From a virus: a DNA stretch of 46,185 nucleotides. The first letter of the stretch is position 1; each line of letters begins with the position of its first letter. The stretch lies in IMG/VR virus record IMGVR_UViG_3300045988_161343; one strand, given 5' to 3'. The notes beneath the pieces are model-generated. The model saw nothing but the letters and a program-made list of their open reading frames with translations. It searched no databases and had not been told where the DNA came from. Both the position numbers and the translations under genes were made by a program. This document shows, piece after piece, positions 810 to 46,185 of the stretch.

Positions 810-839
810 TTTTCAATTCATTTCTCTGCTGCCACAAGG

Positions 840-1135: not shown

Positions 1136-1628
1136 TAAATTCATTTTTCTAATTAACAAATGTTCCTTTTAATACTTTATCACTTATTTTCTTTATACTT
1201 TCTGCGTCCCCTATACCTTCACGGCGTCCTAATGTTTTTCTACTAACTGTTATATTATATAATTCCTAACACATTTGTATTACATCATTCTATGTAGGTT
1301 TTTTATTCTTCTTTTTAGTTGCTTCAACTACAGCATTTAACATCTATCCATCAGTAATTTTTTCTTTTTCTCCGCCTTTAGCCCCTGAAGCAGCCTTTTG
1401 TTCACTAACCTCTTTAGATTTATCAATAGTAAGTTTCATAGACTATAACAACATCATAATAATTCCATAATCTTTATCATTCTCATCAGGCTCAATACCA
1501 TATAATCCATAATTAGTTAATGCACTATATAATTTATATTTTAATTCTACATCTTCATTCTATTCAATAGTTTCTCTCATATTAGCCCAGAAGGTAAATT
1601 TTTCTTTATTCGGCTTTTCAACTGCCAT
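1128..1628 (-). CDS. HTH DNA-binding protein, 166 aa, needs read-through of 5 in-frame TAGs and ends at TGA
   Basis: SD GGAGG lies 9 nt upstream of ATG at 1628. C-terminal ...ELYNITVSRKTLGRREGIGD resembles a resolvase/sigma-region-4-type HTH. If TAG were a stop the ORF would be 22 aa. Confidence 0.45.
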
Positions 1629-22328: not shown

Positions 22329-22333
22329 TAATT

Positions 22334-24210: not shown

Positions 24211-24798
24211 ATGCGAAAATTCTTAAATGTCATTCTTGTAATCGCTATGGTTGCTTTAATGATGATGCCAGTAAATGCTTTTAACATAAAAAGTTATAGT
24301 GCTGATGGCGGAAGCAGGTCAGAAATCGAATACGGTCCTACAGAATATTGTAATTGCGGAATCGACCATACTAATAAACCCTTTGAATGGTGGACTGATA
24401 TTACATCTACTGATAGTTCTCAATGGGATTTAATTCATAATTATTTAACCATTTAGGAGAACGGCACATTAGCTACTGATGATGGCTATACTGCTTGTGC
24501 TCTTGGAAGGTATTTCGGTAAGATTGGTTCAAAATGGATTTTTATTTGTGAAGATGGTTCAGAGATTAAGGTCGTTAAAGCTGATGAAAAGCAAGACCGC
24601 CATACAAAAAACTGGGATTTAATTCATGGTATTATTTGTGATGAATTAATTGAGCTTGTTGTAGATAGTAAGATTAGTCAAACTTGCCCAACTGGTAATT
24701 TCAAAGACCTTGAAGGTTTTGAAGGTAATATAATTGGGTGGAAAGAAGTTCTTAATAATGAATTACCTGATTTGTTAAAAGGAACAATTTATAAATAA
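24211..24798 (+). CDS. Secreted protein, 195 aa, with one in-frame TAG; track shows only the N-terminal 81 aa
   Basis: Signal peptide MRKFLNVILVIAMVALMMMPVNAF. After TAG at 24454-24456 the frame continues 114 codons without TAA or TGA to TAA at 24796-24798. Confidence 0.5.
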
Positions 24799-24824
24799 AA
24801 TAATATTAAATGAGGTAATATAAA

Positions 24825-25325
24825 ATGAGCGTAGTTGCCGCGAAGGTATATGATAATAATATTCAAATGTCTGCGGACAGTATTTTAACTAATGGATGGG
24901 AAAAAGACCCTAATACTAACTTTACTAAAATTATTTCTTTAAATGATATGATTGTTGGTAGTGTTGGTAATGCGGATGAATGTAGTCTTATGTGGCTGTA
25001 TATGGAAAATCATCAACCGCTTAATGCTACAGAAAGAGAAATTCTTAATTATTTTACTGAATTTGGTAAATGGAAAGGCGAGATTTCTAATACTCGTGAG
25101 ATTAGGAATAGTTATTTAATGGCTTTTGAAGGTCATCTTTTTCAGATTTGTGGATACTTAGTTAGAGAAATTAAAGATTATTATGCTATCGGTGCTGGCG
25201 CTCCTTATGCTTTGACAGCACTTCATCTTGGACATGATTCAGAAGAAGCTGTTAAAGTTTCTTGTGCTATGTGTTGCTTTGTTTGTGAACCTATTGTGAC
25301 ATATAATCAGAAAAAAGATAATTAA
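24825..25325 (+). CDS. HslV/proteasome-beta-like Ntn-hydrolase peptidase homolog, 166 aa
   Basis: MSVVAAKVYDNNIQMSADSILTNG resembles the HslV N-terminus (TTIVSVRR..VVIAGDGQ.T.G). GAGAPYALTALHLGH resembles HslV GSGG.YALAAARAL. Confidence 0.45.
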   Translation: MSVVAAKVYDNNIQMSADSILTNGWEKDPNTNFTKIISLNDMIVGSVGNADECSLMWLYMENHQPLNATEREILNYFTEFGKWKGEISNTREIRNSYLMAFEGHLFQICGYLVREIKDYYAIGAGAPYALTALHLGHDSEEAVKVSCAMCCFVCEPIVTYNQKKDN

Positions 25326-25335
25326 ACATAGATAA

Positions 25336-25372
25336 AAAGGGATAAAGATTTGATTCTTTATCCCTTTTTTAT
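25336..25372 (+). terminator. Rho-independent terminator
   Basis: gggataaagatttgattctttatccc hairpin followed by TTTTTTATTTTTAT. Confidence 0.6.
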
Positions 25373-25428
25373 TTTTATAAAAAAATATTATAAAATATTT
25401 ATAGAAAAAATAAAGGGAGTAAATAATC

Positions 25429-26784
25429 ATGACGCCTTATGAAGCATTAACGGCACAAGATAAGAAATATATTACTGAATATATTGAAACATGGGGTGGT
25501 GTTAATTCCCCTATTAAACTCAAAGCATCTCTTGATTATATCCTTCGAGAATGGAATAAGAGTAAACAAACTCTATTTAATATTTTTGGCGAAAAGTTAA
25601 TGCTGGAGAAGGAAATCCAGGTTGAAGATGGAGATAACAAAAAAGTAAGAGAAGTTAATGAGTATCTCTATAGCACTAATCCTGGTATCAATTTTATTAC
25701 AAATCTTCGTAGATTATTTGAATCTGATACTACTTATTTTGAAAATAGTTATGCAACAAGACATGCCATATATAATTTAACTCAAGCTTATCAACTTTTT
25801 ACTAATAGAGTTGTTAAAGGATTTGCTTATCACAATAAAGATGGTAAAGTAGTTAAAGTTCCAGAAGGAGCTAAGGTAATGAAAGTTCTTCAGAAAATGG
25901 CTAAAGAATTTGATTTGCCTGATTTTGAAATTTTTCGCAATCATGTTTCACGTATTACTGAAGTACGCAAATCTAAAATTAAATTTACTCTGTCTATTCA
26001 TCCCTTGGATTATATGACTATGAGCGATAATGCAAATTGCTGGGAAAGTTGTATGAATTGGACTCAAGGGTCAGGAAGCTATCGTGCAGGTACTATTGAG
26101 ATGATGAATAGTCCATTAGTTGTTGTAGCATATATTACTACTAAACCTTACTATCCAGAAAATACTTCTATTGAATGGACTTCCAAAAGTTGGAGAGAAT
26201 TAATCATTGTCCATCCGAATGCTATTTGTTCTGTAAAATCTTATCCTTATTACAATATTGCATTTGATAAAGCTCTTGTAAATTGGCTTGTTGATTTGGT
26301 TGAAGAAAAAACTGAATGGCGTTATAACAGAAAAAAGCCACAAGAGAGTTTGGAAAGTTGCTCTTATATTGGAGCTTGGCAAGATAAAGAAGATAAGGAT
26401 AATCATTTTCTGTTGGATTTTGCAACAAATGAAATGTATAATGATTTTGGTAATACAGAGAATTATGGAATTTTTTCAATTAATCCACCAAACAATAAAT
26501 ATCGTACATTTACAATTAATTATTCTGGTTTAATGACTTGTATGTGCTGCGGCGAGGATGGTTATTTGTCTGACGACACTGAAATGGTGATTTGTGAAGA
26601 CTGTGATCCACCTACTTATTGTTATTGTTGTGGTGAACGAGTTAATACAAATGATGCAATTGAAGTAGACGGCGAATGGGTCTGTGAAGATTGTTATTGT
26701 GATTTGCATAGATGTTTATGCTGTGAGGATACTCATTTTGATGAAGATTTCACTCCCGTATTTATTGGACATATTGATAATTAA
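25429..26784 (+). CDS. Paralog B of the HPLDY/zinc-ribbon family, 451 aa, ending at TAA
   Basis: SIHPLDYMTMSDNANCWESCMNW core; C-terminal CxxC clusters. Confidence 0.55.
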   Translation: MTPYEALTAQDKKYITEYIETWGGVNSPIKLKASLDYILREWNKSKQTLFNIFGEKLMLEKEIQVEDGDNKKVREVNEYLYSTNPGINFITNLRRLFESDTTYFENSYATRHAIYNLTQAYQLFTNRVVKGFAYHNKDGKVVKVPEGAKVMKVLQKMAKEFDLPDFEIFRNHVSRITEVRKSKIKFTLSIHPLDYMTMSDNANCWESCMNWTQGSGSYRAGTIEMMNSPLVVVAYITTKPYYPENTSIEWTSKSWRELIIVHPNAICSVKSYPYYNIAFDKALVNWLVDLVEEKTEWRYNRKKPQESLESCSYIGAWQDKEDKDNHFLLDFATNEMYNDFGNTENYGIFSINPPNNKYRTFTINYSGLMTCMCCGEDGYLSDDTEMVICEDCDPPTYCYCCGERVNTNDAIEVDGEWVCEDCYCDLHRCLCCEDTHFDEDFTPVFIGHIDN

Positions 26785-27072
26785 ACTATTAATATTGATT
26801 ATGATGAGCATTATATTTGCAACGAATGTCTTGCCAATAAAGAATATTTAAAGTATCTTGGAGATACTGATATTAGAGCTGAAACAATTCGATTAGATGG
26901 CGGTCCTTATTATGGTATGGTGGCTCTCTTAATTGAAGAAGATGATTTAAATGTAGAGGCTAAAAAGATAATTTCTAATGATCCTTATTCTACTATAATT
27001 ACTGATTATACTTATGCTATTCGTCGTTATCCTGAGCGTTTTTATAGTTACAATAGGTCAATCGCGATTTAA
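26785..27072 (+). pseudogene. In-frame stop-free continuation (96 codons) beyond the TAA of paralog B. It is homologous to the post-TAG C-terminal zinc-ribbon extension of paralog C, so it is a possible truncated remnant or a read-through extension
   Basis: ...HIDN(TAA)TINIDYDEHYICNECLANKEY... aligns with paralog C ...GDNY(TAG)ICDNCNMYYDKKD.... There is no ATG-initiated ORF of its own. Confidence 0.3.
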
Positions 27073-27143
27073 TTGAAATTTTTAAAATAAAATAATATAA
27101 TATATACATAAAATAAAGGAAAAATAAAAGGAGTTATTAAATT

Positions 27144-27539
27144 ATGGAAAAGAAGTTTACGAAGCGTGAGCTGTATGATGCTCTGATTGGCAAGCTGTGC
27201 GGTGAAGAGGTTGAAGTTGATGCACAGACTTTGGTTGATTTTTGTCAGGCAGAGATTGACCGTATTGATCAGCGTAATGCCAAGGACCGTGAGAAGCGTG
27301 AGGCCAAGAAGGCAGAGCCTGATGTTGCACGCGAGAAGGTATTTGCCGCACTTGACGAGCAGTTCCGTACTGCTGATGTGATTCATGATTCTATTGATGA
27401 TGAAGATATTACTCTGGGTAAGGTTCGTCATCGTCTTGCAGGTCTTGTCCGCGATGGTCTGGTAAAGAAGCAGGAGATGAAGATTCCTGGCGGCGAGGGT
27501 GAGAAGGCACGTCACGCTATGTGCTACGCAAAGGCTTAA
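27144..27539 (+). CDS. Hypothetical Lys/Glu/Arg-rich protein, 131 aa, in a GC-rich island (foreign composition)
   Basis: GC content is clearly higher than the flanks (many overlapping spurious ORFs in other frames); followed by a GC-rich terminator. Confidence 0.5.
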   Translation: MEKKFTKRELYDALIGKLCGEEVEVDAQTLVDFCQAEIDRIDQRNAKDREKREAKKAEPDVAREKVFAALDEQFRTADVIHDSIDDEDITLGKVRHRLAGLVRDGLVKKQEMKIPGGEGEKARHAMCYAKA

Positions 27540-27543
27540 TACA

Positions 27544-27575
27544 TGAAGGGTCGGGAAACCGGCCCTTTTGTTTTG
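27544..27575 (+). terminator. Rho-independent terminator (GC-rich)
   Basis: gggtcgggaaaccggccc followed by TTTTGTTTTG. Confidence 0.6.
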
Positions 27576-27705
27576 CAATTTAGGGTGCTGCTCCGGCCAA
27601 GGTCAGGCGTCTATACCGAACGCCAAAATTAAAAAATGGTTTAAGAATTTTCTTGACTAAATGTTAATAATATGATAAAATAATATAAAAAAGGAGTAGA
27701 TAAAA

Positions 27706-28533
27706 ATGAAAGTTTGTTTAAGACATAATCAAGAAGAACAATATCTCCAAAAGGCAGAATAGATTGAGGTTAAATGGGCATTTATTGACCATCTTCTTGA
27801 TTTAGTAGAAAAATATCCTGATAAAGATTTTGTCATAGATGCTCCAAAAGGCAAACCAATGGATTGGAAAAGTATAGCCACTTGTAAGGCCGGCCTACAT
27901 TAGGGCCGCACCTTCTATGTTCGGTTGCATGATTTAAATCCTTTGCTTACATTACGCTGGATGGAGAAATATGATCTTAAATTTTTTTATAGTGAACCAG
28001 CAAAAACATATTATGAGCTGTATAATCTAAAAAAATTAGGTGTATCATATGCTTATATTGATGCTCCTATTTTCTTTGATTTAAATGAAGTAAAAAAAAT
28101 AGATATTCCATTAAGACTTGTGCCAAATCGCGCATATATTCAAGGGCATATTCCACAAATGAGTGGCTTACATGGCACTTGGGTTCGTCCAGAAAAACTT
28201 GATATTTATAAACCATATTTTGATGTTTGTGAATTTGAAAATGATGGACCTACACAAGAACGAGCCTTCTACCGCATTTATTTTGAAGATAAGTCTTGGC
28301 CCAATGACATGAATTCATTAATTTTTGGACTTAATACTAATATTGATGATAGATTGGTGTATGAAGGTCTTGATGAAATGCGTCTTAATTGTAGACAAGT
28401 ATGTGAAACACCTAAACCTTATTGCCAAATGTGTGATAAAGTATTGTATTTTGAACGGGCCGGACGTCAATGGGCCAAGGAGTATATTGCCGAACATGAG
28501 GGAGAAGACCAAGAACAGATAAGCCCTAATTGA
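27706..28533 (+). CDS. Hypothetical protein, 275 aa, with two in-frame TAGs; track shows only the 3' part
   Basis: AAGGAG + ATG 27706. The frame runs continuously through TAG at 27760 and 27895 into track ORF 27925. Confidence 0.45.
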
Positions 28534-28587
28534 TTATTTAATAAAATTATTATATAATATTTATATAATAATAGAAGGGAATAAGAA

Positions 28588-29586
28588 ATGGGTAAAAAAG
28601 TTTTAGTTCCTGATTTTACTGAAAATTGTAGAGGGATTTTGGAAGGGTTATTCAAGATTAGTGAAGTAGGTCTTTTGAAAGCTCTCGGTGATTTTGTATC
28701 TAATAAATATTCTAATGTAGAGATTACAGAAGATTATGTATATGCTGAAGGTAATATTCCTGTTATGCTTATTGCACATGTAGATACTGTATTTAGACAA
28801 CCAATTCGTCAATTTACTTATAATGAGAAAAGAGCTGTTTATAAAGGCAAGGAAGGTCTTGGAGCAGACGATAGAGCAGGTGTTTTTGCGATTATTCAGA
28901 TTTTACGCAAAAAGTATAGACCTTATGTTCTTTTTACAACAGATGAAGAAATGGGTGGCTATGGTGCGCATATATTTGTTGAAGCACATCCAGTAGCTCC
29001 AAATATTAAGTACATGATTGAGCTTGATAGAGCTGGTGAAAGAGATTGTGTCTTCTATGAGTGTGAAAATTTTACATTTATAGATTATGTTGAAAGTTTT
29101 GGTTTTAGACAAGCAATTGGATCATTTACAGATATTAGTATTATTATGCCTGAATGGGAAATTGCCGGAGTAAATTTATCAGTTGGCTATCATCATGAAC
29201 ATACTCAAAATGAAGATTTGCATATTAGAACATTGTATAATACAATTAATAAAGTATGTAAAATGCTTGATGATATTGAAAATGCAGATAAATATAAATT
29301 TATCCCCAGCAAGGAATATCTTCAGTGGATTACATTGACTAATAAATATCATATGCCTTATGATTTTGATGATGATAAACTTATTAATTGTAGTTTTTGT
29401 AATCAGTTGTATTATGAGTGGGAAGATTTTCCTCTTGATATTGATGGAGTAAAGGTTCATGTATGCCCTGAATGTTTGGCACTTGATCCTAATATTCATC
29501 AATGTGAAAGGTGCTATAATTTATTTTATTCAAATAATATGAAAGAAAGAGTATGTGATAAATGTCGAGTCCCTGTTGTAATTTAA
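28588..29586 (+). CDS. M20/M28/M42-type metallopeptidase-like protein with C-terminal Cys4 zinc ribbons, 332 aa
   Basis: MLIAHVDTVF ... GADDRAGVFA motifs (HxD, GxDD) of the zinc-peptidase/deacylase fold. C-terminus CSFCNQ...CPEC...CERC...CDKC. Confidence 0.45.
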   Translation: MGKKVLVPDFTENCRGILEGLFKISEVGLLKALGDFVSNKYSNVEITEDYVYAEGNIPVMLIAHVDTVFRQPIRQFTYNEKRAVYKGKEGLGADDRAGVFAIIQILRKKYRPYVLFTTDEEMGGYGAHIFVEAHPVAPNIKYMIELDRAGERDCVFYECENFTFIDYVESFGFRQAIGSFTDISIIMPEWEIAGVNLSVGYHHEHTQNEDLHIRTLYNTINKVCKMLDDIENADKYKFIPSKEYLQWITLTNKYHMPYDFDDDKLINCSFCNQLYYEWEDFPLDIDGVKVHVCPECLALDPNIHQCERCYNLFYSNNMKERVCDKCRVPVVI

Positions 29587-29666
29587 ATGAAATTAAAGAA
29601 CAAGTAAAGAAGGTTATTGCCTATTCATAGGGACTGGACATTAACCTTTTAAATATTGATAAATTA

Positions 29667-30987
29667 ATGAATGATTGGGAAGAGAATAAATGCAAATTTT
29701 ATAGCAGACTTCCTGGTAATAAATTAATTTATCAAAGTCATGCACCTATTACAATGTCTATTTCAGAAGATGATAAAAAAGCTGAATTAGATTGTTTTAT
29801 TGACAACATTCGTTGGCGTTATGGCTTATTTGAATTAAGAGATTTTGTTGAAAATAATAGAAAAAATTTTTATAATAATATTTTAAGCGAAGATTATTCA
29901 ATGAATAATGGAACTATCATTCCAAAAGGAATGAAAATAATTAAAGCATTTAAATATTTTGTAGAAGATAAGGAAATTCTTACTGAAATACAAGATAAAG
30001 CTAGTATGCTTATTCAAAATACAAAAATTAGTGGATATTTTTGTATGTCAGTTCATCCATTGGATTATCTTAGTTTAAGTGAAAATACGCATAATTGGCG
30101 GTCATGTCATGCTCTTGATGGAGAATATCGTGCTGGTAATTTATCTTATATGGCAGATAATTGTACGATTATATGTTATATTAAGAGTGAACATGATGCG
30201 GTTTTACCTAGATTTCCAGATGATGTACCATGGGCAGATAAGAAGTGGCGTATGCTTCTTCATGTATCTGATGATGATACTATGGTTATTTCAGGTCGGC
30301 ATTATCCTTATGAAAGTAAAGGATTACAAGATTTTGCTCTTGAACTGTATGAAACATTTTTCGGGCAAGGATATCGGTTTACCGATTGGTGTCATGAAAA
30401 ATATAATACATTTACAATAAATGATAAAATCTTTTCTAATGAAGTTCGTTTATTACCTACTGGGTATATGATGACCCCAGATATTAAGGTTATTGTTGAC
30501 CCAAAAAATCCTTTACATTATAATGACCCTCTTCATTCTACTGTATATGACTATTGGTTTAGTATTGCTTATAGTGAACCTTATTGGCATGAAGAAGGTA
30601 TTCCGCAAGATAAATTAATTCTTCCAAGAACTCGTACCACTACTAAAGTTAATATAGGACATGATGTAAAATGTTGTATTTGTGGTAAAAATGATTGTGT
30701 TTTAACAGATACGATGCTTTGTATTGATTGTGAACTTAAATATGGTACAGAAGAAACAGAAGATTTTACTTTCTGTAGAGAATGCGGTAGACGTATTTAT
30801 ATTCCTGAAGCAATATCATTAGATGATGATGATGGTTATGTATGCCGTAGTTGCGGAGACAATTATTAGATATGTGATAATTGTAATATGTATTATGATA
30901 AAAAAGATTTAATTTATGATGAAGAAAACAATGCTTACTATTGTGAAGCTTGTTATGATGAAATTTTATTTGATAGGGAGAATGAAT
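29667..30987 (+). CDS. Paralog C of the HPLDY/zinc-ribbon family, about 440 aa. TAG at 30867-30869 is read through into a further Cys4 ribbon ending at TAA
   Basis: MSVHPLDYLSLSENTHNWRSC core. Extension ICDNCNMYYDKKDLIYDEENNAYYCEACYDE continues the CxxC module. Confidence 0.5.
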
Positions 30988-30988
30988 A

Positions 30989-31297
30989 ATGGCAAAAGGT
31001 AGTATTGCTAAAGATGCTGTTGTAGAAAAAATTGCAGAAGCATTTGGTGAAGATTTCCTCGGATCTTATGATAAAAAGTATTATGTGCGAGCTAAAGAAA
31101 ATGGACAATATATTCAGATTGCAATTAGTCTAACGTGTCCGAAAACTCCTGTAGAAAATTTTGGTTCTATGGATTTTGGTAATAATGAACTTAATTTTGA
31201 AAATGGAGCAACAATTCAGTCTGTAAAGAAGGCTACAGAAATTAGTCCAGAAGAAGAAGAAAATTTAAAAGCTTTAATTGAAAAGCTTGGTTTATAA
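30989..31297 (+). CDS. Hypothetical protein, 102 aa
   Basis: ORF track. Confidence 0.5.
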   Translation: MAKGSIAKDAVVEKIAEAFGEDFLGSYDKKYYVRAKENGQYIQIAISLTCPKTPVENFGSMDFGNNELNFENGATIQSVKKATEISPEEEENLKALIEKLGL

Positions 31298-31330
31298 GAG
31301 AAAGTCAAATTGACTTTCTCTTATTTTTAT
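31292..31330 (+). terminator. Rho-independent terminator
   Basis: gagaaagtcaaattgactttctc followed by TTATTTTTAT. Confidence 0.6.
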
Positions 31331-31404
31331 GTTATAATTATTTATATAGGGCATATTATATTAATTAAATAATTAAATTTCTTATATAAGAAAGGAATAA
31401 AAAT

Positions 31405-31686
31405 ATGAAGAAGATTATAATTCCTCAAGAAGAAGTAAATTATCTTTAGAAATTAAATTATGAAATTGAAGCTAGAAAAAATTTATGTCAATTTTTAATT
31501 AGACAAAATATTAGAAATAAAGCTTTTAATGATTATCATAATGAGTATATAGAATTATTTGCTGAATATGAATTAGCTAAATTAGAATTAGAAAATAATT
31601 ATATCAAACCAGAAATTGGGAATCAAACTTGCAATTGGAATTTAGATTTTTATACAAATGAGGTAATTATTGATGTTATTTCCTAA
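31405..31686 (+). CDS. Small protein, 93 aa with one TAG, first gene of the rSAM cluster
   Basis: SD AAAGGA; continuous frame ending at TAA; overlaps the rSAM start. Confidence 0.4.
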
Positions 31687-33013
31687 AATAAGCCACATTC
31701 CTGAAGAATTTTCTGATTTTATAGGTCGTTTATATCCTGAAGATTGTTTAAATTCTTAGTCTGTATTTACATTAACATTTTAGGTTACAGATGATTGTTG
31801 TTTAAATTGTACTTATTGTTATCAAGGGCATAAAGGTAAACATAAATTATCTTTTGAAACAGCTAAACAGATGATTGATTAGATATTAACCAGAGATAAT
31901 AAAATTATTGGTTATATTGATTCTTATAAAATACCAGGAGTAATAATAGAATTTATAGGTGGAGAGCCATTTTTAGAAATTGAATTAATTGATTAGATTA
32001 CTGATTATTTTATTAATAAAATGATTGAATTGCGGCATCCTTGGGCTACTAAATATAAAATTTCAATTAGTTCTAATGGTATTTTATATTTTGAACAAAA
32101 AGTACAAGAGTATATTAAAAAAAATAATGAAAATTTAAGTTTATCAATTTCTATTGATGGAAATAAAAAATTACATGACGCTTGTAGAGTTTTCCCTGAT
32201 GGTAGTGGTAGTTATGATAAAGCATTGTCTGCCGCATTACATTATAGCCATAATTATAATAAATGGATTGGGAGTAAAATGACTATCTCTCCATTTAATA
32301 TAGATTATTTATATGACGCTGTTTTAGAAATGATAAACAATGGTTATAGTCAAATCAATCTAAATTGTGTGTATGAAAAAGGTTGGGAACTTAACCATGC
32401 CACTACATTATATTATTAGTTAAAAAAAATTGCTGATTATTTATTAAATAATGATTTGTGGGATAAAGTTTATTTATCTATTTTTTATATTAATGATGGA
32501 AGTAAAAATTTATCTAATGATAATTGGTGTGGCGGGAATGGTCGTATGTTAGCCTTAAATTGGAAAGGTAAATATTATCCATGTTTACGTTATATGGAAG
32601 ATAGCATAAGTAATCAGCCAGAATATTATATTGGAGATATTTATTAGGGAATAGGCCAAGATAATTTAACCATCAATAGATTAAAAGATTTATCTGAAAT
32701 AACAGTTATTAGTCAATCTCCTCAAGAATGTTTAGATTGTGAAATTTCTGGAGGATGCTCTTGGTGTACAGCTTATAATTATCAAGAAACAGGTAATGTT
32801 AATAAAAGAGTTACTTATATTTGTGATATGCATTATGCTACAGTTCTAGCTTCTTTATATTATTTAAATTCTATTTTAAAAAAAATAAACTCGAATAAAC
32901 GATTTAAATTTAATGGAGATATGGAAAAAGCATTAAAAATTATCTCTTAGGATGAATATAATATAATAAAGGAGACAATGACAAATGAAAATAGGAACGA
33001 CAATAACTTCTGA
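31673..33013 (+). CDS. Radical SAM enzyme with C-terminal SPASM/twitch domain (anSME / RiPP-maturase-like), 446 aa with about 7 in-frame TAGs; fragmented in the track
   Basis: CCLNCTYC = CxxxCxxC cluster, GGEP motif. C-terminal Cys clusters CGGNGRMLAL...YYPCLRY and CLDCEISGGCSWCT. Frame is continuous from ATG 31673 to TGA 33011-33013 only with TAG as sense. Confidence 0.65.
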
Positions 33014-33635
33014 TAGATTCAATGAATTAAAGAAAAAAATAAAGGCTGAATGTTTACGTCGTAAATATACCGGTAGTGTAAGTTCATATGGAGGGACTTC
33101 TTATGATTATACTACTTAGCCTGATAATGGAAAAGTTATTTCAAAAGAACACATAACAAAACTGGTAGAACCTATGGCGGCAATAAATATTGAAAATCAG
33201 AATGAAAATATAAATGTTATTAAAGATGATGATTTAAGTACATTAGAGGCAAAAATTACAGCTTATCAAGCTATGGGATTAACTGATTCGAATACTGGAT
33301 GTTCAGCTTATTGCACTGGATTATGTTCTACCAGTTGTAGCGAAAGTTGTGGAGTACAATGTTAGGAAACTTGTTTAGGTAGTTGTAAGAATACTTGCCA
33401 AGGAGGCTGTCAAAACACTTGCAGAGGCGGATGTCAAAGCAGTTGTAGTGGTAGCTGTAGCGGATGTAGTGGTTCTTGCTCAGGTGGATGCTATACAGGA
33501 TGTAGTGGATGCAGTGGTAGCTGTACAAGACATTGTGCTAACGATTGTACTGGATTGTGTGGAGGAAGTTGTTCAGGTTTATGTACAAGCTGTACTGGCA
33601 CATGTAGTGGCACAGGTAGAAATGAACCATTATAA
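32985..33635 (+). CDS. Cysteine-rich repeat peptide, 216 aa: ~100-aa leader followed by ~27 tandem C-x3-C units; precursor-like
   Basis: SD AAGGAGA 9 nt upstream. Core is CSAYCTGLCSTSCSESCGVQC(TAG)ETCLGSCKNTCQGGCQNTCRGGCQSSCSGSCSGCSGSCSGGCYTGCSGCSGSCTRHCANDCTGLCGGSCSGLCTSCTGTCSG; two in-frame TAGs. Confidence 0.55.
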
Positions 33636-33753
33636 TTTAAAAATATTTATCGAAAATACATATAACTGTAAGATATATTATATGTATCTTATACAAGATA
33701 ATATTTTATTTTGTATAAGTAATTATAAGAATATAAATTTTCAAAAATATAAT

Positions 33754-34323
33754 ATGGATATTTAGATTTTATCTGTTTATGAATATTTATGTCAAAAATA
33801 TATTTTACATAAGGATATATTAAAACAATATAAAGGTATAGAATTATATAAAATTATGGAAATTCAAGATAAAATTTTTATTAATAGATATAAATTATTA
33901 TTGTAGATTATTAATAATAATTATAATTTTGATAATTAGTTAATATACACTGATTTTAATAATTTTAATTTTGAACAAAATATTAGTTATATAAATTATT
34001 GTTTAAAATTGCTATTTAATAATTTTAAAAAAATAGATAAACAATTTTGGAAAATTTTAGATTAGATTTATTTTTTAATTAATGGTAAAACTAATTTATT
34101 TTTATTGTTGGGAAATTTTTATTTGAATAAAAGTAATTTATAGCAATTTACTGAAGAAATAAAAAAAATTCCTGGAATTAAAGAATAGCTCTCTTTTAGT
34201 TATACAGCTTTAAATTTAGCTATTGAAATTGATAAAGTTGCAGAAAATAAAAATTATCTTAATGAATTAATTGAAATTATTGATAATCATTCACAAGAAA
34301 AAATTTATAAATTTGATATTTAA
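33754..34323 (+). CDS. Very AT-rich hypothetical protein, about 189 aa, with 6 in-frame TAG and no TAA or TGA
   Basis: In an AT-rich stretch, 570 nt free of TAA and TGA in one frame is unlikely by chance. The N-terminal part of track ORF 33448-33765 is in the same frame. Confidence 0.4.
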
Positions 34324-34378
34324 TAAAAATTAATATATAATATATATACAAAATAAAGAAAATAAAGACTTTAACAGC

Positions 34379-34491
34379 AAAAAATGGACAGTAAATCCGT
34401 CGCGAATGCTACGCAGGTTCGAATCCTGCCCTCCCCACCATTATATGGCGGAGGTAGGGAAGCGGTTAAACCCAGCGGAACCAAACCAAAT
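34379..34491 (+). ncRNA. Promoter-driven tRNA-like element with circularly permuted arrangement (T-arm + 3' acceptor + CCA, 6-nt linker, then 5' acceptor + D-arm), flanked by the inverted repeat AAAGACTT/AAGTCTTG
   Basis: gcaggttcgaatcctgc cctcccc a cca ttatat g gcggagg ta ggg aagcggttaaa ccc a gcgga. Acceptor strands are complementary with one C-C mismatch. The candidate anticodon stem tccgt/gcgga is split across the ends. Confidence 0.25.
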
Positions 34492-34585
34492 AAGTCTTGT
34501 TTGAATAAAATAATTATTTGATTTTTAATAAAAAATATTATATAATATTTATATAAAAAGACTTTTACAGCAACTTAAACTTTTT

Positions 34586-34660
34586 TCCGTGGTCGAATAA
34601 CTGGATAATTCATCAGAGTTAATTCTGAAAATAAGGATTCGAATTCCTTCCTTGGAGCCA
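34586..34660 (+). tRNA. tRNA-like gene with canonical acceptor, D and T arms, CCA, and a 6-nt anticodon loop (gTTAat); own promoter, flanked by AAAAGACTTTT/AAAAGTCTT inverted repeats
   Basis: tccgtgg tc gaat aactggata attc a tcaga gttaat tctga aaat aagga ttcgaat tcctt ccttgga g cca. Confidence 0.35.
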
Positions 34661-34742
34661 AGTATAAAAAGTCTTGGGTAAATTTCTTAATTTGAAAAAA
34701 TTAAAAAAATATAATATAATATATAAGTAATCAATAAGAAAT

Positions 34743-34891
34743 CAAATAAATGCTCTCGTAGCTCAATTGGTCAGAGCCGGCGACTTATCCAAGATTAGTT
34801 TAAATGGCAAAATAGTCTATGCGCAAGAAAGATGTAAGTTCAAATCTAACATCTTGGGCCAAATCGCCAGATGTGGGTTCAAATCCCGACG
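34743..34891 (+). tRNA. tRNA carrying a ~73-nt tRNA-like insertion inside the anticodon loop; anticodon after excision is ambiguous (UAU, UAA or CAA depending on junction)
   Basis: Outer: gctctcg ta gctc aattggtca gagc c ggcga cttat[...]aa tcgcc agat gtggg ttcaaat cccga cgggagc a cca. Insert 34780-34852 is ccaagat...gtaag ttcaaat ctaac atcttgg g cca (acceptor-like stem + T-arm + CCA). Confidence 0.45.
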
Positions 34892-34926
34892 GGAGCACCA
34901 TATTCCAATAGAAAGGAATTAAAATA

Positions 34927-35166
34927 ATGAAGTTGACAAATATTAAGCAGGTTGAAGATTTTATCGCAGCAGTTAATCGCGCACATAGTAATGTATGGCT
35001 GGTTAGTCCACAAGGTGATAGATATAATATGAAATCTGCACTTTCACAGTATATCGCGCTTGGCGCATTACTTGGTCAGCATGGTGATGAATTGGAACTT
35101 TTCTGTGATAGTAAGCAAGATGAAGGTTTGTTTATTGAATTTTTTGTTCGTCACCCTGAAGTTTAA
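34927..35166 (+). CDS. Small hypothetical protein inside the tRNA array, 79 aa
   Basis: ORF track; SD AAAGGAATTAAAATA ATG. Confidence 0.45.
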   Translation: MKLTNIKQVEDFIAAVNRAHSNVWLVSPQGDRYNMKSALSQYIALGALLGQHGDELELFCDSKQDEGLFIEFFVRHPEV

Positions 35167-37247: not shown

Positions 37248-37321
37248 GGGGACATAGTTTATGGTAGGAAAACGTTGAATTTAATTCAAAATCGAGGGTG
37301 CAATTCCCTCTGGCTCCACCA
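37248..37321 (+). tRNA. Atypical tRNA. The anticodon arm folds either as 5 bp + 5-nt loop or 4 bp + 7-nt loop ATTTAAT (anticodon UUA, ochre-type); assignment unresolved
   Basis: ggggaca ta gttt atggtagg aaac g ttgaa tttaa ttcaa aatc gaggg tgcaatt ccctc tggctcc a cca. One A-G mismatch in the acceptor. Confidence 0.35.
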
Positions 37322-38659: not shown

Positions 38660-38748
38660 GCGGAATTAACTTGCCCGGCGGTAAGCCTTGTCTTGAAAAC
38701 AAGTGGTCCTGTGATAGGGATGGGGATCGACACCTCAGTTCCGCGCCA
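38660..38748 (+). tRNA. tRNA-Ser (anticodon UGA), class II, atypical T-loop
   Basis: gcggaat ta a cttg cccggcgg taag c cttgt cttgaaa acaag tggtcctgtgatagggatg gggg... gttccgc g cca. Overlaps spurious track ORF 38653-38901. Confidence 0.5.
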
Positions 38749-38980: not shown

Positions 38981-39094
38981 ATGAAAATGTTTATTCTTTC
39001 ATATAAGGGCGGCAAAGATGGCGGCGATATTGACAAAGAAGATACTTCCAAGTCAACAGGCGGCTGGGATGGCGGCTCTATAGATGATGATTAA
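38981..39094 (+). CDS. Small Gly/Asp-rich protein, 37 aa, first gene of the late block
   Basis: SD AAAGGAGAAGG; MKMFILSYKGGKDGGDIDKEDTSKSTGGWDGGSIDDD. Confidence 0.35.
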   Translation: MKMFILSYKGGKDGGDIDKEDTSKSTGGWDGGSIDDD

Positions 39095-39111
39095 AGAAAG
39101 GAGAACACGAG

Positions 39112-40185
39112 ATGGCTGAAATTATTAAATTAAGACGCGGTAAATCAACTAGTTGGTCTAAAAAGAATATAGTCCTGGCAGCTGGTGAAATCGGCGTAGA
39201 ACTTGATACACATTAGATTAAAGTCGGCGATGGTTCAACCCCTTGGAATGAACTATCTTATGTAGGCGGAACTAAAGTTGTTAATGTTCAAGAATACACT
39301 GATAATCCAGCAGTTGTAGATGACGTGCCTTATCAATCTATTGATGTAGCATTTGTGAAGGCTCCAGCAGGAAGTACAATTCGTCTTAATGCTAACTTTG
39401 ATAACAGTGTTTCTATTGATAAAGCATTGACTATTGAATTAAATGGTAATGATATTATCAATAATGAAAAAACTCCAATAGATATCAAAGCAAATGGCGA
39501 TTTAACTATTAAGGGCCAAGGCACTATTGAATGTAATAAGAATGAAAATGCCGCAGTTTTTAATAATGGTAATATTACTATTAATAATGGTAAATTACAA
39601 CGTACCACTGATGTATCAGGCAATGGCTATTATACTGCTGTTAATCATGGTACTATGACAATCAATGGTGGCATGTTTATGAGTGGTGGCGAATTTTCTA
39701 GCATGATTGAAAATGGCTATTGGGATTATCACGCTGGTAATACTACTAATGGCTATGTTCAAGGCCAAAATGCTGAAATGCCTACATTAACTATTAATGA
39801 TGGTACATTCGCTGGTGGTTTATATGCTATAAAAAATGATGATAATGCTGTTTTAAATATTAATGGCGGCACATTCTATAATACTATTCTTGCTAATGGT
39901 AAGTCAATAACTATCACTGATGGGTATTTTGAAAATAGTAAGCCAAGTCAAGGCGAATATAATTTTTATCTTCGTAAATTAAGTGAAGATTTAAATCCTC
40001 AAAATACATATATTAGTGGCGGTACATTTATTACTGCACAAGATAAGAATTTCAAAGTTGAGGGCGATCCTCATATTGAAATTAGCGGTGGCCGTTTTAA
40101 TAGAGAATTAGATCCTTCTTATCTAGCTCCTGGCTATAGACAAGTACTTGTCAATGGCTTCTATACTGTCTAGAAGGAGGAATAA
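39112..40185 (+). CDS. Tail spike / fibre protein with conserved N-terminal anchor domain and a parallel beta-helix (pectate-lyase-like) repeat region, 357 aa, one in-frame TAG
   Basis: MAEIIKLRRGKSTSWSKKN...ELDTH(TAG)IKVGDGSTPWNEL is paralogous to the N-termini of 40189, 40727 and 44704. Repeats INGGMF, INDGTF, INGGTFY, ISGGTF, ISGGRF. Track starts at 39325 (GTG) after the TAG. Confidence 0.6.
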
Positions 40186-40188
40186 TCT

Positions 40189-40704
40189 ATGGCTGATATC
40201 ATCAAGTTCAAAAGAGGTCGATCAACTACATGGCGTGAAAAGAACTTATTGCTTAAGGATGGCGAGCCTGGATTTGAATTAGATACTCATAAACTGAAAA
40301 TTGGTGATGGTAAAACCTTATGGAATGATTTACCATATATCGGTGGCGAAAGTGGTACAATTGATCTTCCTGATAATGTAATGGAATTTTTAGGCACAGT
40401 TGATGCACTTCCAGCTACTGCTGAAGATGGAGAAATGTGTATTTATGATGGTAAATTATATATTTACGATGGTAAATGGACAACTACAGAAACTTCTTCT
40501 TCAGCACAAAATTCTTTCAATTCTTTAGTAGATGCAATTAACTATATTACTTAGCATAATTGTGTTGGTCAAATTGTATCTATTTTTTAGAATAATAAAT
40601 GGTTGCCTTATATTGTAGATGTAAATAATAATCTTGTACCTATTCAATATGGAGAAGATCATTATGATATTCTTAATGGCGGCAACGCAAATACTCTTAA
40701 TTAA
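40189..40704 (+). CDS. Tail fibre paralog with the same N-terminal domain, 171 aa, two in-frame TAGs
   Basis: MADIIKFKRGRSTTWREKN...ELDTHKLKIGDGKTLWNDL. Continues through TAG at 40552 and 40588 to TAA at 40702-40704. Confidence 0.55.
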
Positions 40705-40726
40705 TTTTATAGGAGGAAAATAATTT

Positions 40727-41950
40727 ATGGCTGAAAATATTCTTAATACTCGCATTCAAGTATTAAATGATACGGCTGAAGCTCTTAAAGCAAAAGGTAG
40801 TGCAGTCCCAAAAGCTGGTGAAATTGTTTACGAGAACGATACTCGTAAAATGAAAATCGGTGATGGTACTACTACTCTTGAAAACTTAAAATATTTTGGT
40901 GGCGAAGCCGCTCAAAATTTTGAAGCTATTCCAACAGGTGAAGAAACTGACGTTCAGGCTATTACTCGTATTGTAGCTTCTGCAGAACTTCACAATGGCG
41001 ATACTGCTATTGTAAAGCGTGTTATTACTGGCGATAAGACTTCTTATACTGCTTACGTATATGACGGTGAATGGAAAGCTATGGATGGCAATTATCGTGC
41101 TGATAATGTTTATTTTGATGATGACATTACTTATACTGTTGCTATTGGCACTTTAGCTAAACCATCTGGTTCTGCTAAATTTGCAGCTAAAGGTAAGAGC
41201 GTTGAACAGGTCCTTTCTACCTTAATGGCCAAGGAAGCTAATCCTTCTAAGTCTGATCCTGCTGTTAGTTTCAGCTCTACTAGCGGACTTGGTACATTTG
41301 AAATTGGCACGAAGAAGAATTTAACATATACAGCAGCTCTATCTGCTGGTAGTTATACTTATGGTCCAGCTACTGGTATTACAGCTCAGAGTTGGAGTGT
41401 AAAATGCACTGGTGTTGAAGATGTCCTTGCTACTGCTACTGGTTCTTTCGATAATGTTGTTGCTGAAGCAACAGCTAAAAAAATTACTGCAACCGCAACT
41501 TATGGCGACGGCACTATTCCTAAGACCAATCTAGGTAATTCTTATCCTGCTAGCCAGATTAAGGCAGGCTCAGCATCTAAAGATAGCAATGTCCTTTAGG
41601 GTGTCCGTCATATGTTCTATGGTCCTATAACTACTGATGCAGCTCTTGATAGTACTACTATTCGTGGATTAAAACATGAAGCTGCTAGTAAAAAGCCTAT
41701 TACTACATTTGGTGCAGGTGCTGGAGCAAAGAAAGTTGTTATTGCTTGTCCTGCTGGATATAATGTAAGTAAGGTTCTTATGCCTAGTGCTATGAATGCT
41801 GATGCTACTGCTAATTTTGTAAAGCAAGCTGGTACTGTTAATGTTGAGGGCGCTGAAGGATATACTGCAGCTCCTTATACTGTTTGGGTATATTAGCCTG
41901 CTGCAATTGATAGTACTGAAACTTATGCTGTCACAATTGGTTAATTTATA
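40727..41950 (+). CDS. Tail fibre protein, 407 aa, two in-frame TAGs (joins track ORFs 40727 and 41612)
   Basis: N-terminal ...GEIVYENDTRKMKIGDGTTTLENL domain; same frame through TAG 41597 and TAG 41894 to TAA 41948-41950. Confidence 0.55.
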
Positions 41951-41968
41951 AAGGAGGAATAATATAAT

Positions 41969-44668
41969 ATGGCTACTATTTTAAAAGATGCTGCCTATAT
42001 GGCTCTTCCTATGAATATCAAGCGTGGTAATCCTATCCCTCTTGATACTACTGCTGTATGGTACGATAAAACTGAACTAAATAAGTATGCAGCTTCTGGT
42101 GCTACTGCATATGTTGGTCAGATTCTAACATTATGCGCCGATAATAAGTGCGAAGCTTATATGATTTCTAATGAAGCTGGTACATTAATTAAACTAGCTT
42201 CTACAACTACCTCTGGTGACCTTGCTGGCGATGTTGCTACTCTACAAGGTCAAGTTACAAATCTTATTTCTAAGGTTGGTAAAGCAGCTGATGGTGAAGT
42301 CGCAGCTACTGGTCTATATAAAGAAATTGCTAATGTTCTAGCTATTGCTAATGGCAAGGTTGCTTCTGTTAAGGCAGCTGATAAGTCCATTATGGTTGGT
42401 GGCAATGCTACTGAGCCTACTGTTAAGGTAGCTATTGCATCTGGTGAGGATAATGCTCTTTCACTTGCAGCTGATGGTCTGAAGGTTGTTATTCCTGAAG
42501 TGACAGTGCCTGAATATAGCATGAAGAAGCTGGATGCCGCTACTGAGGGCATGTCCGCATCTTATCAGCTAACTAAGGATGGCACAGCTATTGGTGCAGT
42601 TATCGACATTCCAAAAGACATGGTTGTTAAGTCTGGTTCTGTTCAGACATTTGCAGCTGGTGAAGTACCCGCTGGTGTTACTGAGGCTGGTACATATATT
42701 GTATTAGTTCTAGCTAATACTACTAATGATAAATTATATATTAGAGTCAATGATTTAATTGAATATGTCACCTCTGGTTCTGCTGCAGATGATATGGTAT
42801 TCATCAATATTGATCCTAAGACTCATAAGGTAACAGCAAAAATTACTGACGGTAGCATCACTGAAGCTAAACTAGCAAAAGCTGTTACCGATAAGCTCGC
42901 TTTAGCTTCTTCTGCTATTCAGAAGGTCGAATCTGGTACTGCTAATGGCACTATTGCTGTTGATGGTACTGATATTGCTGTCACTGGACTAAAGAGTGCT
43001 GCATATACCGATTCCACTGCTTATGATACTGCTGGTACTGCGGCTGGCATAAAGACAGCTCTTGAAGGTGCTGATGCTGATAAGGCTGATGCTCTTACCA
43101 TTAAGGGTGCTAAGAAATATGCTGAGGAAAAAGCAACTGCAGCTCAGAGTGCTGCTGAAACAACTGCAAAGGGTTATATTGATAAACTAAAACTAGATGA
43201 CGCAGCGGTTGCTAAACAGCTCGTTTCTGCCGTTACGCAGACCAATGGTCAAATTGCAGTTATTCGCCGTGAATTAGTTGCTGATGATATTCCTACTCTT
43301 GGTATTTCTAAGATTGATGGTCTTCAGACCGCCCTTAAAGGTAAACAAGATACAGTAACCTTTGATGGTAAATACGATGCTGGCGTTAATAAGGCTGCTA
43401 CTGTATCTACGGTAAATACTGCTGTTGATCATTTAATTCACACTCTTGGTGGAGAAGATAATCAGACTGAAATTGATACTGTAGATAGTAAAACTATTCG
43501 TGGTGCTAAACTTTATGCTGATGAAGTCGGTAAGACTACTCTTGGTTAGGCTAAAACTTATGCTGATAGCTTAGTCGGTGATAGTTCTGCTATTGCTGGT
43601 CGTGTAACTATTCTTGAAGGCAAAGTTGATGTAGCAAAGGTTAGTACTGCTATCTCTACTGCTAAGAATGAGGCTATTGAGGCCGCAGCAACAGATGCCG
43701 CATCTAAGGATACTGCTTTAAAGGTTGAGATCCTTGGAGACGGATATACTGGTACTGTAAAGGAAGCTTATGACCTTGCTAATAAGAAAACTACTATGAC
43801 TGAGGTTGAAGCTAAGGGCTATGCTGTTAAGACTGAAGTTGATGCAGCTGTTGCTGATGCAAAGCAAGCTGGCACTGATGCTCAGACTTCTGTTGATACA
43901 TTAAGCGGTAAAGTTGGTACTATTCCAGTAGGCGCTAAAGCTACTACTGTTATTGGTTATGTAGATGAAAAAATTGCGGCTATTCCTTCACAGGTTAATT
44001 ATACCGTTACTGCTGATGTTAGTAGTCCTACTGGCATTGCCAAACGTTATGTCCTTAGCCAGAATGGTAGTGATATTGTAACCATTGATATCCCCAAAGA
44101 TATGGTGGTCAGCTCTGGTACTGTTGAAACTAAGGCTGATGCCGGTGTCTGGGGTGTTGCAGGTACTTATCTAGTTCTTACTCTAGCTAATGAAACCTCT
44201 GACAAGGTATATATCAATGTTGGCGACCTTATTGAATATGTAACTAGCGGCTCTTAGGCTGGCGATATGGTCGAAATCAAGATTGATGCCGAGCATAAGG
44301 TCACTGCCGTTATCAATGATGGTACGATTACAAAGGCAAAGCTAGCTTAGGCTGTACAAGATAGCCTAGATAAAGCTGATACAGCACTATAGGCTGCCGA
44401 TCTTGCACCATATGCAAAGACTGCTGATATTAAAGCTGGCTATGTTGCAAAAGAAGATGGCAAACAGCTAATGACCGCTGCTGAAAGCACTAAATTGGCC
44501 GGTATTGCTGCTAATGCACAGGTCAACGTGATTGAAGTCATTAAGATTGGCGGCACTGCTCTTGAAATTGCTGATAAAGCTGTTAATATTGAAGCAATCA
44601 GTACTGATCTATTAACTCAAGGTGCTAAAACTCTTATTCTCAATGGTGGCACCGCTGCTTCTCTTTGA
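41969..44668 (+). CDS. Large tail fibre protein, 899 aa, with internal sequence repeats and four in-frame TAGs (joins track ORFs 41969, 43796 and 44471)
   Basis: Single frame verified codon by codon across TAG 43547, 44255, 44348 and 44391 to TGA 44666-44668. Repeat GTYIVLVLANTTNDKLYIRVNDLIEYVTSGSAADDMVFINID / GTYLVLTLANETSDKVYINVGDLIEYVTSGS(TAG)AGDMVEIKID. Confidence 0.6.
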
Positions 44669-44703
44669 TATATATACTAGGGAGAGAGAAAGGGGAATAA
44701 AGA

Positions 44704-45045
44704 ATGGCTCAAAAAGAATTTAATACACGAATTAAATTAAAGTATGATACTTTAGATAAATGGTTAAAGAATACATCAGTTGTACTGCTTAAAGGCGAAA
44801 TTGGCTTATGCTATGTGCCGGCGATTACATCTGGTACAACGACCACAGCTCCTACTGTACTATTTAAAGTTGGTGATGGTACAACCACATGGGAAAAACT
44901 ACCTTGGGGTGCAGGGCTTGGAGCAGATGTCCCGGCATGGGCTAAGGCACCTGCAAAGCCATCTTATACCCTTGATGAAATAGGTGCTAATCCTGATACC
45001 AACTATGTAATTTTCGATTGTGGTTCTTCTACTATAAATATATAA
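44704..45045 (+). CDS. Tail fibre paralog (N-terminal anchor domain only), 113 aa
   Basis: MAQKEFNTRIKLKYDTLDKWLKNTSVVLLKGEIG...FKVGDGTTTWEKL. Confidence 0.55.
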   Translation: MAQKEFNTRIKLKYDTLDKWLKNTSVVLLKGEIGLCYVPAITSGTTTTAPTVLFKVGDGTTTWEKLPWGAGLGADVPAWAKAPAKPSYTLDEIGANPDTNYVIFDCGSSTINI

Positions 45046-45049
45046 GAAT

Positions 45050-45081
45050 AAAGACTCCATTTTGGAGTCTTTATTTTTTTT
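45050..45081 (+). terminator. Rho-independent terminator
   Basis: aaagactcc-atttt-ggagtcttt followed by ATTTTTTTTT. Confidence 0.65.
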
Positions 45082-45163
45082 TACCTGGACTAATTTTATT
45101 AATTTAATATTTTTATTTTTTATATAAATTTAGAATAAGAAACATTGAAAGGAGGAACTTTCA

Positions 45164-46185
45164 TTGGCAGATAAACAATTAAAATCATCATAGTTTCCTA
45201 ATATAAGTGATAAATATGTCGTTAAATTAACAGTAGAAGAATTACAAAATTTATTATCTGATATTAGACTTAATGGCGGAATAGCTTATTAGAAAGATAT
45301 AGTTACAAGCTACAATGATTTAAATGATAAACCTAAGATTTTAACAGAAAAAAATTTATCTGAAGAAGTAAATAATAAATTTGTAGAACTAAAATGTGTA
45401 ACATTAGATGATTTAAAAAATCATACTAAAATGTTAGAAGCAAAATTTAATGGTAATGAAGAAAATGATTTAAGTGAAACCTGGATTATTCATAAAGCCC
45501 CATCTTTCTATTTTAAAAGTAATATTGAATTTGTTTCTAATGGAATAACTTATTCTTCTATAGAATATAAAAAAAATACTTAGCCCAAGAAAGATGGTAT
45601 TATTCTTGAAGATATGTTATATTATGATACCACTTGTGTTGGTCATAGTCCTCAAGATAATTCTGCTATTAATTACAAAGAAATATCTTGGGAAAATTAG
45701 GCTTATAATATAATTAAATTTACCAAAGAAAAGCCAACAGGTGATTTATTAAGATGGTTACAAGAAGATGGAACAATTAAAGGACCTAATACATTTCAAG
45801 GATTATTTAATTATGTAAATAATTAGGATAATGAAACTTTAAAAAAGGCTAAAACGTATATAAATGATGTCATGAATAATTATCATGCTCCAATAGCTAG
45901 TGAAAATACATTAGGTATAGTTATGGGCGGCGGAACTGGTATCGGTATTGATGAAAATGGTAGATTATATGCAACAGGAGAAATTATAGCTGATGCAAAT
46001 ATCTTATGGTCTAAGATAGTAGAAAAACCTACTACTTTAGAAGCAATCAGCAAAGATGCAATGTGTCGAGCTATTATAAATAGTTTACCATCTAGTAGTT
46101 AGTCAGGTAATTATGCTGATTTATTAAATAAACCAGATTTATCTAAATATGCTTTAAAAACAGATATATCTGAATATACATTACC
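45164..46185 (+). CDS. Late structural protein, 3'-truncated by the window end, at least 340 aa with at least 6 in-frame TAGs
   Basis: SD AAAGGAGG 8 nt before TTG at 45164. The frame is free of TAA and TGA to the window end and is the same frame as track ORF 45872-46102. Confidence 0.45.

Follow-up and report, generated by a model that had tools for sequence, protein, structure and literature searches.

The final part of a 46,185-nucleotide (nt) stretch of viral DNA, the IMG/VR virus record IMGVR_UViG_3300045988_161343, carries a block of putative tail-fibre genes whose reading frames run through TAG triplets. This stretch, which we refer to as the window, covers bases 1-46185 of a human gut metagenome scaffold that is 185,023 bp long, and the scaffold is identical to another contig of 184,981 bp across the 11.5 kb of overlap that was checked. 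The genome has a low guanine-plus-cytosine (GC) content of 34% and uses TAA as its dominant stop. Direct translation of positions 39112-46185 revealed six collinear genes on the plus strand with 16 in-frame TAG triplets and not a single in-frame TAA or TGA (Table 1). An earlier note on the window, drawn from its letters, had claimed that the fibre genes are intact only when TAG is read through, and our recount upheld this. The genes are also split by TAG as it had described, although the numbers of pieces are 3, 3, 3, 5 and at least 7 instead of the two to four given there, and the end of gene 3 had to be moved from 41950 to 41944, making the gene 6 nt shorter.

The gene junctions follow a common pattern, with AAGGAG or GGAGG and then ATG behind the terminal TAA or TGA, whereas gene 5 runs into an intrinsic terminator instead. 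This organization, a stop followed by a Shine-Dalgarno (SD) motif plus start codon or by a terminator, had likewise been proposed before. Gene 6 starts with TTG at 45164 behind the Shine-Dalgarno sequence AAGGAGG, and the full gene ends with TAA in the related contig L002. The L-numbered sequences mentioned here and below are contigs of relatives, those from IMG/VR included, and about 85 kb of the ~185-kb genome was covered in total. At out-of-frame positions of the fibre genes, TAG makes up 17% of the stop triplets; the chance that 16 of 16 in-frame stop triplets are TAG is about 5e-13, which is only a rough figure because the open reading frames (ORFs) had been delimited by TAA and TGA beforehand. 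ORFs of 100 codons or more covered 4% of the stretch 45001-46185 with the standard code, 98% with TAG read through and 4% with TGA read through, and the corresponding values for 40001-45000 were 86%, 99% and 90%. Fibre genes 1 and 2 also share a reading frame and are separated only by TAA-TCT, which may be chance (1 in 3).

Table 1. Coordinates of the features discussed (positions in the window unless a related contig is named; aa, amino acids)
Feature	Coordinates	Strand	Remarks
Small 38-aa ORF	38981..39097	+	Translation; no TAG; listed with 37 aa among the genes of public contigs
Putative fibre/spike gene 1, 357 aa	39112..40185	+	TAG at 39214, 40171; stop TAA; Mtd_N/HylP-type N-terminal anchor; repeat-rich C-terminal part
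Putative fibre gene 2, 171 aa	40189..40704	+	TAG at 40552, 40588; stop TAA; Mtd_N anchor
Putative fibre gene 3, 405 aa	40727..41944	+	TAG at 41597, 41894; stop TAA 41942-41944; Mtd_N anchor and phrog_35541 domain
Putative fibre gene 4, 899 aa, Ala-rich	41969..44668	+	TAG at 43547, 44255, 44348, 44390, each followed by GCT; stop TGA; internal duplication
Gene 5, 113 aa	44704..45045	+	No TAG; stop TAA; weak Mtd_N-like N-terminus
Intrinsic terminator downstream of gene 5	45044..45078	+	16-bp stem, then T run
Gene 6, 380 aa in full, exits window	45164..46185	+	TAG at 45191, 45290, 45581, 45698, 45824, 46100 inside window
12 middle/late genes	24211..35166	+	17 in-frame TAGs
Radical-SAM CXXX-repeat peptide maturase	31670..33013	+	Seven in-frame TAGs; used for amino-acid identification
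GIY-YIG endonuclease	183-809	-	7 in-frame TAGs
DUF6291 protein	within 183..1628	-	6 in-frame TAGs
tRNA array, no CUA anticodon	34586..38748	+	Between middle genes and fibre block
tRNA, anticodon UUA	37248..37321	+	Rfam tRNA 47.7 bits; ARAGORN tRNA-Stop(tta); 1.8 kb upstream of fibre block
Sec-like tRNA 1	38173-38258		Member of CCA/UGA pair; Rfam tRNA-Sec 38.8 bits; present in all relatives
Sec-like tRNA 2	38659-38748		6-bp D stem in addition; Rfam search of window copy: no match
Interrupted tRNA gene, relative	L011 13658-13803

In-frame TAGs are a feature of the genome as a whole. The earlier note had located them correctly in the fibre block and had treated them as a feature of that block, whereas they also occur at 24211-35166 and, on the minus strand, at 183-1628. 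Over the whole window, ORFs of this length covered a fraction of 0.67 when the standard code was applied; the fraction rose to 0.84 once TAG was read through, as against 0.75 for TGA. When TAG is treated as sense, ORF-free stretches of 200 nt or longer are restricted to the tRNA array or its borders and a 345-nt divergent intergenic region at 1824-2168. The 54 complete genes end with TAA (41 genes) or TGA (13 genes) and never with TAG, in line with the proposal that TAA and TGA remain terminators. One of the recoded genes, which lies at 24211 and encodes 195 aa, is matched by a full-length counterpart of 194 aa in a distant relative.

The TAGs are distributed unevenly, as had been implied by placing them in late genes. 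The 6183 codons of the 35 early genes at 2192-24117 include four in-frame TAGs, and three of these lie upstream of the likely true starts, as opposed to 46 in 5661 codons in the rest of the window (Fisher p = 4e-11), where the classes 'early' and 'late' were inferred from gene content and order. Two TAGs close to C-termini, the one at 40171 and that at codon 555 of the gene at 18777-20495, could serve as conditional stops.

Two extensions of this picture were tried and rejected. Recoding of TAA in addition to TAG, as in code 6, was rejected since there is no in-frame TAA and no ORF-free stretch outside the tRNA array that would need TAA read-through. In same-frame gene pairs parted by TAA, each member has its own start. 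Back-up stops after TAA showed no enrichment and carried no information on this point. The other extension was a TAG-GCT context preference. All four TAGs of gene 4 are indeed followed by GCT, which represents 10.9% of the codons in this gene; the nominal chance of 1.4e-4 applies to a pattern that was picked after inspection. Lineage-wide, GCT follows only 10 of 111 in-frame TAGs, and the base after these 111 TAGs (A 45%, G 23%, T 21%, C 11%) is distributed much as the first base of all codons (A 38%, G 28%, T 24%, C 10%). The observation for gene 4 stands, and a general context rule was abandoned on the lineage-wide counts.

Homology runs across the TAG positions in the fibre genes. The Pfam family Mtd_N (PF18454, cut-off 26.3) matched residues 5-43 of gene 1 with 47.5 bits, spanning the TAG at codon 35, and also exceeded the cut-off for gene 2 (41.9) and gene 3 (26.8), whereas gene 5 remained below it with 18.7 bits. 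The alignment of gene 1 to the prophage hyaluronidase HylP (PDB 6x3m) also passes over this TAG, and PHROG tail-fibre families match the same gene. In gene 3, phrog_35541 matches residues 84-394 and thereby spans the TAGs at codons 291 and 390; a tblastn match to the Faecalibacterium phage FP_Brigit extends over residues 88-392. The internal repeat of gene 4 is 60% identical (E = 2e-40) and spans two TAGs. The anchor-domain paralogs can be aligned as the earlier note had proposed, but four of them lie inside the window rather than five, the fifth being located just past its end. As part of our best explanation, we consider the block to be probably a series of genes for receptor binding or tail fibres that are written in code 15 and mostly carry an anchor of the Mtd_N/HylP type.

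Could the TAGs be genuine stops, which would turn the block into pseudogenes, assembly errors or separate short pieces? Standard-code gene calling by JGI/IMG does present homologous genes as fragments of 63 aa and 132 aa. However, the frames are interrupted by TAG only and never by TAA or TGA, assemblies made independently from many samples show TAG at the same positions, homology extends over the TAGs, and TAG never serves as the terminal stop. We regard genuine stops as practically excluded. Public gene calls for contigs of this phage list products of 357, 171, 405 and 899 aa at full length, and these calls were therefore produced under a model in which TAG is sense. The phenomenon is the already known code-15 recoding of late genes and is present in public gene calls. 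The exact 113-aa protein encoded at 44704-45045 occurs on contigs in 118 collection blocks. No match was obtained when the fibre block was compared by megablast with 50,697 phage records, and FP_Brigit was the nearest isolate by protein with 38% identity.

The amino acid inserted at TAG was identified with the radical-SAM maturase gene, for which thousands of homologues exist. The closest ones, which are possibly recoded themselves, were dropped, and 107 were kept. At the seven TAG columns, Gln scored +11.7 bits, Glu +1.3 bits and Lys -6.2 bits, with other residues lower, placing Gln about 10 bits ahead of the next residue. One of these columns, within a TFQVTD motif, consists of 98% Gln (117 of 120 before the closest homologues were removed), and two others contain 65% and 48% Gln. 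Among six genomes that are 97-99% identical to one another, TAG takes turns with a sense codon at about ten sites, and at five of these the sense codon is CAG or CAA. Moreover, codon usage shifts between the gene classes: the early genes use CAG at 81 of 145 Gln codons and CAA at 64, and the later genes use CAG at 40 of 129 and CAA at 89, plus the 46 TAGs. In a wider late-gene set of the lineage, TAG occupies 111 of 294 Gln positions. The drop of CAG in late genes is consistent with CAG-to-TAG conversion. Hence, homologue columns, CAG/CAA swaps and CAG depletion positively support TAG as a codon for Gln, with which the earlier note had considered it compatible.

A tRNA that would decode UAG was found in the relatives. 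Neither ARAGORN (default, intron mode and low threshold) nor Rfam detected a CUA anticodon in the window, and the 7.8 kb upstream of it contained no tRNAs. Downstream sequence was reached via IMG/VR relatives with an identity of 97-99% where they overlap. They carry, about 20.7 kb past the end of the window, a second RNA cluster comprising tRNA-Thr, tRNA-Gln(UUG), ROOL RNA, tRNA(CUA), RAGATH-33 and tRNA-Gly. This tRNA(CUA), which adjoins tRNA-Gln(UUG), is 75 nt long with the sequence TCCGGCTTTGGGTAACGGTTAGCTCAGCTGACTCTAAATCAGCAAGTCTCAGTTCGACTCTGAGAGCCGGTGCCA and is identical in nine related contigs. Its fold is an ordinary cloverleaf of the 7/5 type, in which the variable loop has 4 nt and U1.U72 is unpaired; the discriminator base is G73. 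No release factor 2 (RF2) or aminoacyl-tRNA synthetase (aaRS) was noticed in the gene tables, which cover ~85 of ~185 kb and were not searched specifically for either.

More distant relatives possess a different tRNA(CUA) of 89-91 nt with a long insertion in the variable region (L021 12722-12810, L022 14197-14285, L024 233-323). Its acceptor stem reads UGGGG...CCCCA-G (U1-A72, G2-C71, G3-C70, G73), which we take to resemble that of E. coli tRNA-Gln. The 75-nt tRNA(CUA) is flanked by ROOL (L020 11529-12122, 323 bits) and RAGATH-33 (L020 14023-14135, 139 bits), about 19-22 kb past the window end, and drum and skipping-rope RNAs occur in the same cluster of related phages.

These data also bear on the alternative that TAG specifies Lys, Tyr, Ser or pyrrolysine instead of Gln. 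In the fibre paralogs, Lys stands opposite TAG: the TAG at 39214 faces K in three N-terminal paralogs, and in the gene 4 repeat the TAG at 44255 faces A and that at 44348 faces K, confirming the columns of K, K or A reported previously. ARAGORN labels the tRNA(CUA) as 'Pyl', a label that it gives to any CUA anticodon, and a further tRNA in the window, tRNA(UUA), combines A73 with G1-C72, which we take to be as in tRNA-Lys. On the other hand, the maturase columns favour Gln and disfavour Lys and the other residues, one of them almost exclusively containing Gln, and TAG/CAG/CAA swaps dominate in the relatives. Pyrrolysine was rejected because the ordinary cloverleaf of tRNA(CUA) does not have the form of tRNA-Pyl; the gene tables, which cover part of the genome, also contain no pyl genes. 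We therefore judge a residue other than Gln to be very improbable.

The tRNA(UUA) just mentioned is a putative second stop-reading tRNA of this lineage, and a literature search found no report of suppressors with a TTA anticodon in recoded phages. In relatives, its anticodon loop AUUUAAU is invariant, its Rfam score ranges from 47.7 to 52.3 bits, and two compensatory stem changes separate lineages with ~65% identical proteins. Its A73 and G1-C72 distinguish it from tRNA(CUA). It should read UAA, the main terminator of this phage, and UAG by wobble; its presence is puzzling where TAA terminates 41 of 54 genes. One can ask whether this tRNA reads TAG, wholly or partly, through U34-G wobble, with TAA stops surviving as release factors outcompete it. 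Its well-formed and conserved structure and its location 1.8 kb upstream of the fibre block would fit this scenario. However, two TAG-recoded relatives, L001 and L014, lack tRNA(UUA), which is therefore not the essential decoder. A dedicated tRNA(CUA), the same in nine contigs, exists in the lineage, and neither in-frame TAA nor an enrichment of back-up stops after TAA was seen. Decoding of TAG by tRNA(UUA) thus appears unlikely, and an auxiliary contribution to UAG decoding by wobble is possible.

We also considered, as a rather doubtful idea, that the lineage keeps both stop-reading tRNAs, the universal tRNA(CUA) and the conserved but dispensable tRNA(UUA), while UAA is either protected or deliberately leaky late in infection. 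This would amount to an intermediate state between code 15 and code 6 or to a programmed layer of TAA read-through. If tRNA(UUA) were charged and active, UAA termination would need protection, for instance by RF2 outcompeting the tRNA. If UAA were leaky, fibre genes 1 and 2 (357 aa and 171 aa) could fuse through a single TAA.

Taken together, the window very probably belongs to a ~185-kb tailed phage of the human gut that uses code 15, with TAG encoding Gln, TAA and TGA as the sole terminators, and a phage tRNA(CUA) as the decoder. Several points weigh against this. Gln at TAG rests for this phage on sequence comparison; the fibre paralog columns opposite TAG hold K and A but not Q, and they are variable. 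A tRNA(CUA), a release factor and an aminoacyl-tRNA synthetase are all absent from the window. The tRNA(CUA) is known from close relatives rather than from the contig of the window itself, and its acceptor stem has C2-G71 and C3-G70, unlike a textbook tRNA-Gln.

With code 15, we propose that UAG is decoded by a phage-encoded amber-suppressor tRNA(CUA), which this very genome would carry judging from its relatives, and which presumably receives its Gln from a host enzyme (glutaminyl-tRNA synthetase or equivalent). Early genes would be readable by a naive host because TAG is avoided there. Once the suppressor tRNA accumulates, middle and late genes bearing TAG would become translatable, presumably resulting in a temporal, translational gate on late gene expression. 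For annotation, this contig requires translation table 15, as the standard code shreds the fibre genes, the maturase and other late genes, which is what happened to this phage in IMG. Biologically, the window would be a further instance of late genes gated by a phage suppressor tRNA and poses no new question; the tRNA array next to the block stands out more than the TAG recoding does.

Two tRNA genes of this array (34752-34900 and 36143-36275) are interrupted within the anticodon loop by tRNA-like elements of 58-73 nt, each having its own acceptor stem and CCA end. When the inner element is cut out exactly, from the first acceptor base to CCA, a 7-nt loop is regained, which reads CUUAUAA (Ile-UAU) in one case and CUUUUAA (Lys-UUU) in the second, and intact tRNA-Lys(UUU) genes of relatives have an identical anticodon arm. 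A distant relative carries another inner element at a shifted position, the removal of which restores the same loop. We tried all junctions to see whether these intron-like tRNAs are hidden suppressors, and none gave CUA or UUA, the restored anticodons being UAU and UUU. One possibility is that the inner elements are excised by RNase P and RNase Z and that the ends are then ligated. Genes for an RNA ligase (4156-5505), a nucleotidyltransferase (22325-23140) and a metallophosphoesterase (23338-24117) are present in the phage. Our literature search found nothing on tRNA-like insertions in phage tRNA genes.

The array further contains two Sec-like tRNAs with an 8-bp acceptor stem, a long extra arm, G73 and sense anticodons (CCA and UGA). 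An L012 copy of the second one, identical at 88 of 90 positions, reaches the tRNA-Sec threshold (47.6 bits). We presume that these tRNAs resemble the 'allo-tRNAs'. A further tRNA-like gene, at 34586-34660, ends in CCA and has an anticodon loop of 6 nt (GUUAAU); ARAGORN designates it 'Stop|Leu', and it is conserved in L007 and L010. Genes for GIY-YIG and PD-(D/E)XK homing endonucleases are gained and lost within the tRNA arrays of genomes that are otherwise 97-99% identical (183-809 on the minus strand of the window, L001-L006 1-4000 and L018 17853-18500), which makes the tRNA content of the arrays mosaic.

Beyond the array, the maturase forms part of a pair resembling those for ribosomally synthesized and post-translationally modified peptides (31670-33635), in which the radical-SAM maturase of the 'CXXX-repeat target family' is followed by a 216-aa Cys-rich substrate with CXXX repeats; the two genes contain seven and two TAGs, respectively. 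Downstream of the fibre genes, there are several more genes of radical-SAM/SPASM-like type (L018 10468-13340; L030 and L031).

Among known systems, the HylP/Mtd-type anchor (PF18454; PDB 6x3m, 2yvv) is shared with the N-terminal 40-55 residues of genes 1-3. The C-terminal parts of the fibres differ, being unrelated to hyaluronidase or to the C-type lectin fold of Mtd, and they match phrog_35541 and phrog_38190, two families of unknown function. With phAss-1 ('Phassvirus'; PMC10607447), which has a predicted Clostridia host, the phage has in common the gut habitat, TAGs in tail-fibre and other key genes, a tRNA-Sup(CTA), here seen in relatives, and the lack of an aaRS, here in the ~85 kb covered. 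phAss-1 has three CTA tRNAs in all and a genome of 136 kb as opposed to ~185 kb here (PMC10607447). The ciliate-type code 6, in which TAA and TAG both encode Gln via tRNA(UUA) and tRNA(CUA), resembles the present lineage in that both anticodons occur. The difference is that in the present phage TAA, never found in frame, acts as the main terminator.

Code-15 recoding was reportedly described by Ivanova et al. in 2014. Recoding has been proposed to act as a gate on late translation (Borges et al., bioRxiv 10.1101/2021.08.26.457843), and Gln at TAG has been identified by proteomics, in crAss-like phages only (Peters et al., PMC9523058). The code-15 gut phages (crAss-like, Lak, Jade, Sapphire, Agate, Garnet, Amethyst and Topaz) share with the present phage the concentration of TAG in structural, lysis and other late genes, the loss of TAG as a terminator and the compatibility of early genes with the standard code. 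Further common traits are the alignment of TAG to Gln, a phage tRNA(CUA), a low GC content, TAA-dominant stops and the human gut as habitat. The tRNA(UUA) is additional in the present lineage, and the published clades can do without RF2 and aaRS genes. Both the size of the genome and its affinity to a Faecalibacterium phage are in keeping with the large Firmicutes-infecting clades, the genomes of which range from 154 to 210 kb (bioRxiv 10.1101/2021.08.26.457843). With ~185 kb, the present phage falls within this range, and no difference in kind from the code-15 phages of the gut was found.

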